From Eledone cirrhosa (taxonomy: Eukaryota), in contig OZ024745.1 of the NCBI GenBank assembly GCA_964016885.1, positions 109,430,001 through 109,494,000 on the forward strand: 64,000 nucleotides of DNA, read 5' to 3'. Shown one piece after another: positions 8,404-33,140 of the stretch. The notes below the pieces were generated by a model. It did not search any database. It saw only the letters and a list, made by a program, of their open reading frames with translations, and was not told the DNA's origin. The position numbers and the translations under genes are program-made. The first letter of the stretch is position 1, and each line of letters starts with the position of its first letter.

Positions 8404-8849
<446 letters not shown>

Positions 8850-9106
8850 TAAAGAGAGATTGAATGAGTAAGAAGAAAGACAGTTTGACATCACAAATAT
8901 ATTTTAGAATATTTCTGAATATTTTAAAAGTCTTTGTAAGTTAGCACACTTCTTACACTTCTCAACCATCTGTGTATATCTTCTTTCTTCTACTCTCATT
9001 ATATTAGAACTTTAAATCTTTTTACATCTCTTTCCTTGAATCCTCCCTGTTGTATCCAAAGGTTCATCAGACGTGTAATGTCTTTCTTTGGGATTATTCT
9101 GGGATG

Positions 9107-9460
9107 GTGAAGGCGCATGGCTTAGTGCTTAGAGCATTATGCTTGCAATCGGAAGGTTGTGAATTCGATTCTCAGACCAGGTGATGTGTTGTGTCCTTGA
9201 GCAAGACACTTTATTTCACGTTGCTCCACTTTACTCAGCTGTAGAAATGAGTTGCGACGTCACTGGTATCAAGCTGTATCGGCCATAGCCTTTCCCTTGG
9301 ACATCATCAGTGGCATAGAGAGAAGAGGCTGGTATGTATGGGCAACTGCAGGTTTTCCACAAACAACTTTGCCCAGACTTGTGCCTCAGAGGGAAACTTT
9401 CTAGGTGCAAATCCCGTGGACATTCATGACCGAAGGGAATCTTTACCGTACCTTTACCTA
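9107..9460 (+). mobile_element. tRNA-headed SINE family B (head and core as in A, different tail ending in TTTACC repeats)
   Basis: A-box TGGCTTAGTGC, B-box-like AATTCGATTC, core CCTTGAGCAAGACACTTTATTTCAC; other copies at 51702-52030 and 61113-61380 (-). Confidence 0.85.
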
Positions 9461-14401: not shown

Positions 14402-15626
14402 TATATACACATATTCACACACTATAGGAATGACACATGATGACTCCTTGCAGAATTGAAAAAAAATATATATTTTATGTGTTTTTCTCTGTGGTTTCTT
14501 TCCTATAACAGTTTGATAAACAGTGTTTCCCTATATTTATAAGTGGTATGAAAACAAGGTGATGGCTCAGTGATAGAGAATGAAATTTAAAGAACATTAA
14601 CACAATGTTTTGTGTTAGAGTTCCCCAAGCATTGAATTCAGAATAGTAAAACTTCTTCTATTTTGTATTATGGAAGGCAATAAGTGAAATGAGGATAGGT
14701 TTTATGATGACTCTATTTTCTAAAACCCACTCGTTTTGCTACCATTTCCAAAAAGTGATGATTGACACTCACCATCCCATGAACATATTCTTGATTAAAT
14801 AAACTCCCCAATGTGTTTTGAATCAATTTTAAAAATAACTAAGTATTTACAGGAATTTAGTGAAATAACAAACTCTTTCGTTATTAAGTCAGTATTCTGG
14901 GTGATGCTTAGAAACGATTATTGGAGTGTGACAAAGGACCTTGTCATTTTTAGTTACAACCTTTTACATTCTGAATTCAAATCCAACCTAGGTTGACTTT
15001 GCCTTTCATCTCTCAACCTTTGATATGCCTGTCAACCATTGGTTCCATATAATTGACGTCTTATGCCTTTGACACAACCAAAATGTCCTCCCTATTAATT
15101 CTTTGGCAAGTTTTCTATAACTGGATACTCTTCCTATCCTCAACATTACAAGGTATACTGGGTGTGTTTGTCATGGCACCAGCCCTAGAGATGTTGTCTG
15201 TGCTGTGATTGAAGGGTCCCCTCAACTATTCTTGGCATGGCTTCTACGACTGAATGCCATTCTCAACACTAACCACTTTCCTGAGTGTACTGGGTGTGTT
15301 TTACCATGGTACAAGCACTATGGAGGCAGCCATCATTGACTCAACTGAAGAAAATGGAAGCAAATGTTCTTAAAGGTGGCACTTGTATCTGCTGGTTGTC
15401 TATAATTTATAATAAACACTTGGCTTGCTTTAGATCAGTGCACTGAGCTTTCTTCATCTGTATTTAGTAGAGAATAGTACACCAATCAGTTTAGAATAGT
15501 ACACTGTATCCCTGTACATAACAGGAGACTAAAAAGTGCTTCTGATGACAGTCTTGACTCAAAAAGAGACCTCATTATAGACATGAAGCCTGTCATGGAG
15601 CTTGCAAGGTTCAACTCTACTGTAGT

Positions 15627-19398: not shown

Positions 19399-19596
19399 TT
19401 ACATATATATATATAAAGTAGTTGTGTAGGTGACATGACAAAAAGCACCCAGTTGCCACTGTAAAGAGAGAGAGAGAGTGAGAGAGAGAGATAGAGATAG
19501 AGAGAGAGAGAGCATATGTAAAGACATGAAGCTTAATGGTTGGAGTTTTGGGCTCATATTTGTGAGGTTGATATTTCAATTTACAGAGCAGGCAAA

Positions 19597-20095: not shown

Positions 20096-20350
20096 TCATC
20101 ATTTTATGTCCGCTTTTCCATGCTTGCAAGGGTGGGACGGGAACTGATTCTGGCTTGATTTCTACAGCTGGATGCCCTTCCTAACACCAACCTCATTTAC
20201 AGTGAGTGCTGGGTGCTTTTTTGCCGTGGCACCTCCACGACCACTTTGTAGTGGAATGATAGGGACCCCAGTCCTATCATCTCATTTCTATGGCTGAGTA
20301 AACTGGAGCAATGTGAAATAAAGTGTCTTGCTCAAGGAAACAACACATCA
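20096..20350 (-). mobile_element. SINE family A, head truncated
   Basis: Reverse complement of the adjacent copy at 20379-20718. Confidence 0.9.
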
Positions 20351-20378
20351 TATATATATACATCATATATATATATAT

Positions 20379-20715
20379 GGAGGCACATGGCTTAGTGTTT
20401 AGAGCATTGGCCTTGCAATCGAAAGGTTGTGAGTTCAATTCTCAGACCGGGTGATGTGTTGTTTCCTTGAGCAAGACACTTTATTTCAAATTGCTCCAAT
20501 TTACTCAGCTGTAGAAATGAGATGATAGAGAATGGGGTGCCTATCATTCCACTACAAAGTGGTCGTGGAGGTGCCACGGAAAAAAACACCCAGCACTCAC
20601 TGTAAATGAAGGTGGTGTTAGGAAGGGCATCCAGCTGTAGAAATCAAGCCAGAATCAGTTCCCGTCCCACCCTTGCAAGCAGGGAAAAGTGGACGTAAAA
20701 TGATGATGATGATGA

Positions 20716-21399: not shown

Positions 21400-21603
21400 A
21401 AGTGGTCATGAAGGAGACCTCAGCCCACACTGTAAAAATGGCTGGTGTTAGGAAGGGCATCCAGGTGTAGAAAACCTGCCAGAAACAGTTCTGTACGAAC
21501 GAGACATGGTCACATGACCAATCTTGCCTCAAGTGGGACAAACCCGTCCAATACATACTAGCATAGAAGATGGACGTTAAACGATGATGATGATGATGAT
21601 GAT
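21400..21603 (+). mobile_element. RTE-type 3' tail fragment
   Basis: GGTGTTAGGAAGGGCATCCAG...TCTTGCCTCAAGTGGGA...GGACGTTAAACG(ATG)n, matching 32740-32913. Confidence 0.8.
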
Positions 21604-29514: not shown

Positions 29515-29852
29515 TCATCATCATCATCATCATCATTTTACGTCCGCTTTCCCTGCTTGCAAGGGTGGGACGGGAACTGATTCTGGCTTGATTTCTACAG
29601 CTGGATGCCCTTCCTAACACCAACCTCATTTACAGTGAGTGCTGGGTGCTTTTTTTCCGTGGCACCTCCACGACCACTTTGCAGTGGAATGATAGGGACC
29701 CCAGTCCCTATCATCTCATTTCTACAGCTGAGTAAACTGGAGAATGTGAAATAAAGTGTCTTGCTCAAGGAAACAACACATCACCCAGTCTGAGAATTGA
29801 ACTCACAATCTTTCGATTGCAAGGCCAATGCTCTAACCACTAAGCCATGTCA
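29515..29852 (-). mobile_element. SINE family A, full length
   Basis: Near-identical reverse complement of 45420-45745. Confidence 0.9.
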
Positions 29853-30040
29853 CCCGTTCCATATAACCATGTCCATTACAAGCTGAGGATCTGCTAAGGT
29901 GAAACAATTGTTCTCTGTATGGTGAACTAACTGTTGTGTAACCACTTCTACCTAACTCGTCCCATGGACTGAGTGCTCTACCACTACGGATATTACCTTC
30001 CAGTGTTCTACCACTATATATATATATATATATATATATA

Positions 30041-30946
30041 CGAGGTGGGTCAGAAAAGTTCCAGGACTGATGTCACAAAAGATTTATTTCAAACCCAAAC
30101 TTCACACTAAGAGTTTTCTCCTTCAAAGTAATCCCCCTGGAGTATGTAACTGTAATCTTAGCTCTCTGCAGCAATCAAACTTTTTTCTTCATAATTTTAT
30201 ATACATGTCTTCTGTTTCAGGTCATCAAGCAATGAAGACAGAGCAACGAACAAACTTGAAAACTCTGTCAGAAGCACTGGGATTGCTGCAGCAAGTGTAT
30301 GGAGATGAGACGATGTCACGCTCATGTGTTTTTGAGTGGTGCAAGAGGTTTAAAGAAGGACACGAGGACGTGGAAGATGACCCCAGGAGTGGAAGGCCCT
30401 CAACAACTAGGACTGAGGTCAACGTTGAGCACGTCAGGCAGATGGTGCGTAGCGATCGTCAGCTGACTGTTCGACTGGTGGCAAATGAGCTGGGCATGAA
30501 TCGGGACAGCGTCTGGAAGATTCTCACTGAAGATTTGGATATGCGGAAAGTCTGCGCGAAGATGGTGCCAAAACTGCTGAACAATGACCAGAAGGGTTGA
30601 CGCATGCAAGTGTGCCAGGACATCCTCGAGAGTCTTGAAACCGAACCAGACTTGCTAGGGACAGTCATCACCGGTGATGAGTCATGGATCTTCGAGTATG
30701 ACCTGGAAGGGACCCGTTTTGAAGACGTGGACGACATAAAAAAGGCCATGATGACGGAACTGCGGAGGATCCTGGAAGAATCCTTCCAGGAGTGCATGCA
30801 AGCGTGGCAGAAAAGGATGGAAAAATGCATTAGACTCCAGGGGATTACTTTGAAGGAGAAAACTATTAGTGTGAAGTTTGGGTTTGAAACAAATCTTTTG
30901 TGACATCAGTCCTGGCACTTTTCTGCCCCCCCCCCCCCCCCCCCCG
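30041..30946 (+). mobile_element. Mariner element, internally deleted, TIRs of about 100 bp, TA TSD
   Basis: TA|CGAGG...CG|TA; protein [55 protein letters not shown] joined directly to [13 protein letters not shown]. Confidence 0.93.
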
Positions 30947-31767: not shown

Positions 31768-32913
31768 GAGTGTAGGAAAGGCGTAGGTAGAAATTCCATT
31801 TTGTGTCCCAAATGCAAAGTTTGGGTGCATAAAAGATGTAGTGGGATCACAGGTAAGCTAACTAAGAACATAGATTTTACATGTGGCCGGTGCTCTGGGG
31901 ATATAAGTAGCAGCAAGTGCCCACAAAATACTAGCTCTTTCAACTGCGCAGAGGGTTCTATAGAAATAGTGGACAGCTTCCGTTACCTGGGTGACAAAAT
32001 CAGCAGTGGGGGAGGGTGCTCTGAAAGTACAGTAGCTAGAGTCAGAACTGGGTGGAAAAAGTTCAGAGAGCTTATACCACTATTAGCCGCTAAAGGGTTC
32101 TCCCTAAAAATAAAAGGCAGGCTGTACGATGCCTGCATACGAACAGCAATGTTGCATGGCAGTGAGACCTGGGCATTGTGTGCAGAGGATATACGCAGAC
32201 TAGAGAGAAACGAAGCTTGCATGCTCCGCTGGATGTGTAATAGTAATATACGTGAACGACAAAGCATAAACGAACTAAGGAAAAAATTAGAAATAAGAGG
32301 GATCAGATGTTGTTTACTAGAGAGAAGGCTACGTTGGTATGGTCACGTGATGCGCATGAAGGATGATAGCTGTATAAGAAAGTGCAGGGCAATAAAGATA
32401 GACGGTAGCCACGGAATAGGCAGACCCAGAAAAACCTGGGACGAGCTGATAAACACCGACCTCACACACTTACACCTCACCAAGACAATGTCACTGGACC
32501 GAGACCTTTGGCGGTACTCAGTAATAGAGAAGACCCGCCTTGCCAGTAGGCATCTCTAACAAAATACACCCCGTCCCACCACCACCAACCCCACCCCATC
32601 CACACCGCCCGTTCTATGTAAAGTTATGTTGGTGCCGCGCCATCCAGGCCGAAACAAATGAGATCGTGTAGGTGTCACGACAAAAAAACACACAGTCCAC
32701 GCTGTAATGTGGCCGTGTAGGCAACACGGTAAAAACCTCCCAGACCCACACTGTAAATGTGGTTGGTGTTAGGAAGGGCATCCAACTGTAGAAAACCTGC
32801 CAGACAGTCCTATGCGAGCAAGAAAATCACTCTTGCCTCAAGTGGGACTACCCCCGTCCAAACCCATGCAAGCGTGGAACACGGACGTTAAACGTTGATG
32901 ATGATGATGATGA
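31768..32913 (+). mobile_element. RTE LINE, 5'-truncated; open ORF2 C-terminus with PHD-like Cys cluster and complete 3' UTR ending in (GAT)n
   Basis: CRKGVGRNSILCPKCKVWVHKRCSG..CGRC, VDSFRYLGD, AMLHGSETW, RRLRWYGHVMR, GRPRKTW; stop at 32559. Confidence 0.93.
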
Positions 32914-32930
32914 TATATATATATATATAT

Positions 32931-33140
32931 AACGAAGGAAATGTGATAAGGAACCAGATGGACCATAACGCACCAAAGTACTCAATACTTAGGGTAGTAG
33001 AGTGGGTAATAGGAACGAGTAGGACCCGACAGCTGAGCTCAAGCCGTTTTGACGGCTAATTCTGGACTAAAATATATATATTAGTCCAGAATTAGCCGTC
33101 GAAACGGCTGGAGCTCAGCCGTCGGGGATTTACCCGTTCC
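32931..33140. mobile_element. Inverted pair of Neptune pLTR 3' pieces (- 32931-33070; + 33081-33140)
   Basis: Both begin at TTAGTCCAGAATTAGCCGTC; the + copy has perfect stem III GAAACGGCT-GGAGCTC-AGCCGTC^GGGG. Confidence 0.85.

Follow-up and report, generated by a model that had tools for sequence, protein, structure and literature searches.

A predicted pseudoknot module of RTE 5' leaders, probably captured and multiplied in the 3' UTR of a LINE of Eledone cirrhosa

The tail of an RTE-type LINE in Eledone cirrhosa carries a chain of small predicted pseudoknots. Judged from its sequence relatives, this chain is a module of the RTE 5' leader that stands at a fixed distance before the start codon and is conserved in that place across animals; bipartite SINEs carry it too, and it was probably captured, duplicated and multiplied in the 3' UTR of this one LINE. 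The analysis started from a stretch of 64,000 nt (contig OZ024745.1, positions 109,430,001 to 109,494,000, forward strand; hereafter the window), and positions are given within it. Bipartite RTE SINEs are known; the predicted pseudoknot fold, the ATG spacing and the use of the bipartite piece as the 3' UTR of a LINE are new, as far as the literature searched shows.

Results

The LINE, its tail and their copies in the window

The LINE copy and the related elements of the window are listed below.

31771..32559, + strand: RTE ORF truncated at its 5' end; encodes a PHD-like finger and a reverse transcriptase protein's C-terminal part, and ends with TAA at 32557-32559
32664..32691, + strand: PK1, a duplicate of the PK3-type module; its stem 1 is included in the PK3-type alignment
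32692..32712, + strand: PK2, duplicated from the PK4-type module; could also pair with the terminal hairpin's 3' arm, to which it is complementary (rival fold)
32713..32738, + strand: PK3, with a stem, a GG-rich loop, an A-rich linker and a short crossing stem
32741..32762, + strand: PK4, a 3-bp stem crossed by CCACA/TGTGG
32761..32801, + strand: PK5, the widely shared core (AGGAAGGGCATCC begins at 32771); 32761-69 is predicted to pair with 32780-87, and GGC 32777-79 with GCC 32799-801 as the crossing stem
32802..32814, + strand: 10-nt spacer and vestigial ATG (32812-14), the ATG 41 nt past the first A of the core
32806..32849, + strand: intermediate nested hairpin, in the LINE tail only
32855..32887, + strand: terminal stem-loop, common to SINE A
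32897..32914, + strand: (GAT)6 tail, read from the sequence
43308..43758, + strand: second insertion of the LINE, the ORF end joined to the whole tail; tail 98% identical
63192..63790, + strand: tail-only copy with the 112-nt unit (PK2-PK3-PK4-PK5) four times
21424..21603, + strand: an older copy of the tail (79% identity) that has PK4, PK5 and the terminal hairpin
45416..45750, + strand: SINE A, with a head likely derived from a tRNA, a CORE-like body (by eye), PK3-PK4-PK5 at 45603-45692 without an ATG, and the terminal hairpin
29536..29850, - strand: SINE A copy, by sequence match
20377-20700 (+), 20102-20350 (-), 59873-60133 (-) and 8409-8706 (-): other SINE A copies, by sequence match

The first-pass annotation assigned the LINE to RTE, and the upstream ORF is indeed the end of an RTE-type reverse transcriptase. 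Among the matches listed, its best relatives are APE+RT proteins of about 1050 aa (up to 55% identical) and its nearest named relatives are Octopus bimaculoides proteins (67-69% over about half of the query); the single-ORF APE+RT layout is read from the relatives, the window itself having the C-terminal part alone. The PHD-like finger was matched with an E of 2.7e-5, below the curated cut-off. We presume the label RTE from the architecture of the relatives and the short tail. The LINE ends in the hairpin at 32855-87 and (GAT)6 and SINE A ends alike; such a 3' stem-loop and microsatellite tail, common to a LINE and its partner SINE, are an RTE-LINE trait. The hairpin is present in both elements, with an A-T to T-A swap. 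LINE/SINE pairs share a 3' end that is recognised by the reverse transcriptase, and by analogy the terminal stem-loop is likely the recognition site. Since the junction of ORF and tail is seen again in the second insertion, the join is a trait of the family. Directly downstream of the LINE, there is a long near-perfect inverted repeat at 33040-33140. At about 30040-30930 lies what we take to be a broken DNA transposon with terminal inverted repeats, whose gene is mariner transposase-like by eye.

The 112-nt units of the tail-only copy are joined through a short shared word after PK5 and before PK2, and this junction also appears as a loose end in run X7. At 15080-15480 (-) and 19415-19465 lie decayed old copies, which show PK3-PK4-PK5-like units, two in tandem, and a module of the PK3 type that has wobble pairs. 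Part of the LINE tail is common to five SINE A copies of the window. In the head of SINE A, A/B-box-like words were read by eye at 45420-45490, and ARAGORN found no tRNAs in the window. The body carries a piece homologous to the RTE 5' UTR, as bipartite RTE-derived SINEs do, and both SINE A and the LINE tail show the known bipartite RTE form of a 5' part and a 3' end. In addition, the CORE-like body at 45538-45592 holds two more pseudoknot-compatible modules of PK4 shape, the first of which recurs with few informative changes in the SINE families of the window at 9100-9400, 61100-61385, 51780-52040 and 57345-57640. Conserved SINE domains may, to judge from such readings, be pseudoknot chains.

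Folding of the tail

PK1 to PK4 and the terminal hairpin had been described at the positions listed above; the DNA reads exactly so, and an automatic H-type scan recovered all four modules unaided. The summed stacking energy of the four modules (stacks alone, with no loop penalty) is -63.6 kcal/mol, compared with -24.0 +/- 8.2 in dinucleotide shuffles, and 0 of 3037 shuffles were as good. The reverse strand of the same stretch scores -39.0. Among 2840 sliding windows (103 nt, step 45, both strands), five scored -50 or lower, every one a copy of the LINE-tail family; as none was in exact register, none reached -63.6. Each two-module unit alone, and likewise the SINE unit, was matched by 0 of 1500 shuffles. 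When only nested pairs are allowed, the tail forms hairpins, and PK2 pairs with the terminal hairpin in a competing long-range helix. The tail sequence permits knots without proving them, and the folds are given here as predictions.

The chain had been drawn as five back-to-back pseudoknots. The modules are non-random, but PK1+PK2 is a tandem duplicate of PK3+PK4, which leaves two independent types and PK5. The stretch described as a weaker PK5 at 32762-32799 proved the most widely shared of all, but its pairing was redrawn to 32761-32769 / 32780-32787 with the GGC/GCC crossing stem. An AGG/CCT crossing stem for PK5 was rejected, CCT 32796-98 being missing from SINE A. An Rfam search of 32400-33000 at E up to 10 gave one chance lncRNA match and no matching family.

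Covariation of the stems

The crossing stems had been named beforehand as the place where covariation should decide for or against pseudoknots. By inspection, PK4 shows two compensated swaps between three host families, the PK3 type is suggestive, and the arm of PK5 is invariant. The PK4 crossing stem occurs in three compensated states, CACA/TGTG in the LINE, CTCA/TGAG in SINE A and CACT/AGTG in a third host family, the last from loose-end consensuses of 453 and 108 contigs with an agreement of 0.61-0.68. In SINE A, the variants T45639A and A45651T rise together (17% and 23% in run X1, unphased). The commonest variants within PK1-4 (C32722T, A32744C/T) and the indels lie in loops, and two common X1 variants break predicted pairs (C32689A, 9%; T32758C, 13%); the run variant tables are unphased, depth-weighted contig counts and were used as hints only. 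The proposal that SINE A keeps the topology with other bases held for the shared modules and their compensatory changes, but the SINE unit is colinear with PK3+PK4 and not with PK1.

Stem 1 of the PK3 type is 92% paired with double changes in three of its five pairs, a result reached in 0 of 500 shuffles (slid controls, 31-56%), in an alignment of 10 rows from the window and six loci whose kinship inflates the test, so that shuffle counts are not to be read as probabilities. A sequence-free descriptor of this type, with the A-run as the sole fixed letters, gave six sense matches and one antisense match in 46 loci, with 0.5 expected. The crossing stem GGTG/CACY is constant; other pairs occur in L074 and L081, where homology is by shape alone. 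PK3-type modules are also found in the RTE 5' UTRs of L044, L062, L067, L074 and L085.

Stem 1 of PK5 is 87% paired and without covariation, as 400 of 500 shuffles were equally high, and its invariance is partly built in because the search patterns fixed most PK5 letters. When the pattern was run without the 5' arm, the arm was still present in 12 of 13 loci, only three of which were new, two with the arm. The crossing partner GCY is not part of any pattern; in 31 of 43 loci it stands at +21..+33 (here and below, distances are counted from the core's first A), where shuffles gave a mean of 9 and a maximum of 17 and six control windows further 3' gave 4-16. It is missing from the tested range in the other 12 of the 43, and the crossing stem has 2-3 bp and a 5' arm that does not vary. 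For A32780, an alternative partner (either T at -2 or T before GCY) fits 31/31 GCY rows, of which four are informative, and no claim is made.

Relatives in other animals

In 20 of 60 distinct motif loci of other animals, the motif is followed directly on the same strand by an RTE endonuclease ORF; in none does the upstream flank of 450-700 nt contain a same-strand RT end. These counts do not agree with a chain that takes the place of poly(A) in the 3' UTR, as the tobamovirus domain does: given the 5'-UTR placement in other loci and 0/60 in a 3' UTR within that flank, the reading of the chain as a 3'-UTR invention must be reversed. By its sequence context, the module is native to the RTE 5' UTR and reached the tail of the window's LINE secondarily. 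Two published hagfish RTE consensuses agree with a module in the RTE 5' UTR at the ATG spacing described below. The order PK3-PK4-PK5-ATG-ORF is found in L062 and L067, the peptides of which are closest to P0004, P0006 and P0008; these three rank among the nearest relatives of the window's ORF among the matches listed. A 3'-end word, from a set chosen after viewing the loci, was reached within 260 nt in 23 of 62 loci, as expected of SINE-like or internally deleted elements.

The PK5 pattern was also found in 9, 27 and 13 stretches of prokaryote assemblies (three scans) and in 47 of metagenomes (one scan), which look like animal DNA carried along. The loci L001-L009, L013-L039 and L087-L098 include animal-type RTE and SINE sequence in several prokaryote assemblies, likely host or soil-animal contamination. 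Matches in viral contigs (0, 3 and 2 in three scans) were set aside: L010, L099 and L100 have no 5' arm and were judged to be chance, and L011 and L012 did not fit the scripted motif. L094 was set aside likewise. A protein-based locus search of genome contigs gave no match.

Distance to the start codon

The first in-frame ATG stands at +39..+47 in 10 of 12 loci; one of the remaining two has it at +54 and the other has none. Of the 20 loci with an RTE ORF downstream, 14 have an in-frame ATG at +38..+47 (a range set after seeing the 12-locus result), compared with a shuffle mean of 1.2 and a maximum of 6 in 1000, and six loci fall outside. Some of the 20 are related, and L067/L077 are near-duplicates. 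This spacing persists though spacer letters and N-terminal peptide lengths differ. The protein homologs listed for the window's ORF offered a check independent of the DNA pattern. A recognisable endonuclease start is present in 41 of 120, and five of these 41 are over-long gene calls that translate the motif and then a Met (P0051 at +40, P0098 at +43, P0045 at +44, P0004 and P0006 at +45), two of the five being flagged by the pattern and the others read by eye. P0055 and P0086, relatives of the over-long calls, start at that Met; P0056 (+25) and P0121 (about +52) fit more poorly.

Start positioning would call for a structured element that sits 5' of the start codon at a short and constant distance; such a predicted element is present in the relatives and vestigial in the window. 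The ATG at 32812 opens 28 codons only, is missing from SINE A and reads ATA in about 18% of contig depth (run X1); from its spacing at +41, which matches that of the true start codon of RTE 5' UTRs, we read it as a relic. ATGs occur within 100 nt upstream in 11 of 15 RTE leaders (L092 was left out, as its row read another match), so plain scanning fits poorly. The fixed spacing could be simple inheritance of a compact leader.

Sequence upstream of PK5

In five other loci, the PK4 slot is occupied by a twister-like ribozyme. The twister-P1 match ends at the start of PK5 in these 5 of 20 loci searched (E 2e-8 to 2e-3), every twister match being below the Rfam gathering score of 67 bits. The five (L015, L027, L035, L036, L072) lie at RTE 5' ends or in short bipartite elements, and their last ribozyme strand overlaps the first arm of PK5, so that cleavage could switch the fold. 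PK4 may, from its sequence, represent a twister P4/T1 in reduced form. That the window copy is itself a twister ribozyme was rejected, because P1 and P2 are absent and PK4 resembles the P4/T1 part alone.

Other loci have PK3/PK4-type modules or hairpins upstream of PK5. A PK4-type pseudoknot ends just before PK5 in 9 of 44 families, compared with 4.7 expected (P about 0.035), and the general excess of upstream pseudoknots over 42 families is small (mean z -0.45). As the upstream modules are variable, the full chain is a subfamily trait and PK5 the common core. About 45-50 nt ahead of the core, L055 and L065 have strong pseudoknot-compatible modules in which each of the two stems has 6-7 bp and whose letters differ between the loci. 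Upstream of the motif in L071 is a word similar to the 23-bp Ceph-SINE word given in PMC5786205, with a 5-bp crossing stem. The start of the conserved RTE 5'-UTR domain, as printed in the same source, parses by eye as a PK4-shaped pseudoknot.

Discussion

In the present study, with moderate confidence and on the basis of modelled folds, we propose that the segment of the RTE 5' leader about 40 nt before the start codon may serve as a start-positioning, ribosome-docking element for uncapped RTE RNA. The predicted folded element ends about 10-16 nt before the AUG and upstream ATGs oppose scanning, which together argue for a role in start positioning. The 40S subunit covers roughly 10-16 nt 5' of the AUG. 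Self-cleavage by a ribozyme would leave the RTE RNA uncapped; PK5 would stay folded just beyond the stretch that the 40S subunit covers, and the AUG would be placed without scanning. PK3/PK4-type modules or the ribozyme core upstream would then be exchangeable helpers. In SINEs and in the LINE 3' tail the AUG would be dispensable, and the module would keep the RNA near ribosomes making RTE protein. The Alu domain is thought to keep its RNA near ribosomes making L1 protein, according to the ribosome-stalling model. As to the history, an internally deleted RTE (5' leader and 3' end) would have given the SINE tail, the window's LINE would have taken the bipartite piece as its own 3' end, and PK3-4 would then have been duplicated to give PK1-2.

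More tentatively, and with some doubt, PK5 itself can be seen as a minimal (about 45 nt), animal-wide docking pseudoknot on self-cleaved uncapped RTE RNA, acting possibly via pairing of the invariant AAGGGCAUC with 18S rRNA, and captured by SINEs of many phyla and by the LINE tail. At its end, the conserved 18S region 1423-1443 (PMC3940700) is exactly complementary to the invariant AAGGGCATC, the chance of the 18S match being about 0.03 as a rough figure before allowing for the post hoc choice. For 9 nt the core at 32773-32782 complements 18S 1423-1443, and for 9 nt it has the same letters as part of 18S 1141-1161, as these are given there. The 18S-complementary bases are also predicted to pair inside PK5, and we treat the pairing as a lead from sequence. 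The 1423-1443 stretch of 18S is normally helical.

Four other explanations were considered. As the main rival, the module may be a second binding site of the RTE protein, for packaging or 5' joining, like the 5'-region pseudoknot of R2, so that SINEs would keep both RNA ends for the protein. Bipartite SINEs repeatedly retain the RTE 5' part (PMC5786205 and PMC7245038), the R2 protein binds a 5' pseudoknot (PMC6765202), SINE A retains PK3-5 and drops the ATG, and the loop letters, being invariant, would suit binding by a protein; that non-coding SINEs keep the module fits equally well. We consider this possible but unlikely, as protein binding alone leaves the fixed ATG distance unexplained, and the core is unchanged across RTE proteins with endonuclease N-termini about 40-70% identical to their nearest homologs, which makes a conserved host partner more likely. 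The same ATG spacing is left unexplained if the pseudoknots block 5'-to-3' exonucleases like viral xrRNAs, stabilising uncapped RTE/SINE RNA and, in a 3' UTR, protecting a short piece of the tail. The compact H-type shape of the predicted folds, their A-rich linkers, the tandem multiplication of whole modules and the position just 3' of the self-cleavage site would suit such a block, but there was no Rfam xrRNA match at E up to 10 and the uncapped ends of RTE/SINE RNA are poor Xrn1 substrates, so that we regard it as improbable. Xrn1 acts poorly both on the 5'-OH of ribozyme 3' products and on the triphosphate of Pol III RNAs.

The crossing stems are only 3-5 bp, nested folding accounts for much of the pairing, PK5 has no covariation and PK1-2 arose by duplication. 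The first stems alone might therefore be real and the crossing stems chance, the segment being a passenger from a captured SINE tail. This seems very unlikely to us in view of the three compensated states of the PK4 crossing stem in host families, the joint rise of T45639A and A45651T, and the position of the commonest PK1-4 variants and of the indels in loops. As for a 3'-UTR poly(A) substitute or translation enhancer like the tobamovirus domain, the view of the first-pass annotation, the family has no poly(A) tract, and in two independent insertions its chain is indeed placed in the 3' UTR, where duplication expanded it; the TMV domain binds eEF1A (PMC13564737). However, the origin in the 5' UTR, the placement in a 3' UTR in 0 of 60 other loci, the retention by non-coding SINEs and the vestigial ATG at 5'-UTR spacing make it highly improbable as the function of the module, and later co-option in the 3' UTR may have taken place.

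If the docking reading is true, there would for the first time be a mechanism for the RTE 5' pieces that recur in SINE bodies, and the retention of such a piece by SINEs would be explained by its reuse in non-coding parasites. In the literature covered, both the translation of uncapped RTE RNA and this retention have sequence-level descriptions only. A module of 45-140 nt with a defined predicted fold, a fixed AUG distance and natural variants makes both questions testable by short reporters. If it proves to be a cap-independent start element of minimal size, it would also provide a compact tool to express circular or uncapped RNA. Furthermore, the window is a natural experiment, in which the module was moved to a 3' UTR, the need for an AUG was lost and whole units were multiplied.

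Bipartite RTE-derived SINEs and a conserved RTE 5'-UTR domain have been described before (Kojima 2018, PMC5786205; hagfish SINEs, PMC7245038). In these sources, searched supplements included, the 5' piece is given without structure or function, and the word pseudoknot occurs 0 times in the text covered. The supplement text of PMC5786205 likewise has 0 matches for the motif or the word, although alignments printed as pictures or in broken lines could hide it. In the present case, a LINE of autonomous type has the bipartite piece for its 3' UTR, an arrangement of which the bipartite-SINE literature covered gave no description. In cephalopod work, a hairpin in the V domain and octopus OR2 as a CORE SINE were reported (PMC4758252), and an octopus RTE with a microsatellite 3' UTR was described with no mention of pseudoknots in the accessible text of PMC9115989. 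Across the literature covered, with most subscription papers and Repbase reports outside its scope, there was no description of the module structure or the ATG spacing, and the literal motif occurs in 0 main texts.

The chain is like the tobamovirus upstream pseudoknot domain in that consecutive small pseudoknots stand before a structured 3' end in an RNA without poly(A). Unlike that domain, its native site is the 5' UTR, it is kept in non-coding SINEs, and it has no tRNA-like structure and no Rfam match. The 5' and 3' pseudoknots of R2 are likewise parts of a non-LTR retrotransposon RNA with a possible protein-binding role, but R2 belongs to another clade, its folds are larger and it has no chain of interchangeable small modules. 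In HCV-like IRESs, a pseudoknot reportedly positions the start codon, as put forward by Berry in 2010. A pseudoknot just 5' of the AUG places the start codon in these type IV elements according to PMC12656792 also. In comparison with the type IV IRES of about 300 nt, our module has about 45-140 nt, no domain II or III, no sequence likeness and no Rfam match, and its activity is predicted.

Ribozyme-led systems come from the same clade. Some RTE, R2 and L1Tc RNAs are freed by 5' ribozymes, have no cap and are translated from the cleaved end, and cleaved twister and HDV ribozymes were reported to support translation of the retrotransposon ORF (PMC8501958 and PMC6765202). Viruses with translation from a ribozyme-cleaved uncapped end are also known (PMC13725137). 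Like the twister variants of Schistosoma Perere-3 (PMC8501958) and the HDV-like ribozymes of R2, L1Tc and RTE (PMC6765202), the module belongs to RTE-clade, uncapped RNA with a structured 5' end, and twister-like matches adjoin it in five loci. The window copy differs from ribozyme-led retrotransposons in having no ribozyme match. Moreover, where those sources credit the ribozyme, our comparison points to a separate, non-catalytic module between the ribozyme and the ATG, common to families with differing upstream parts.
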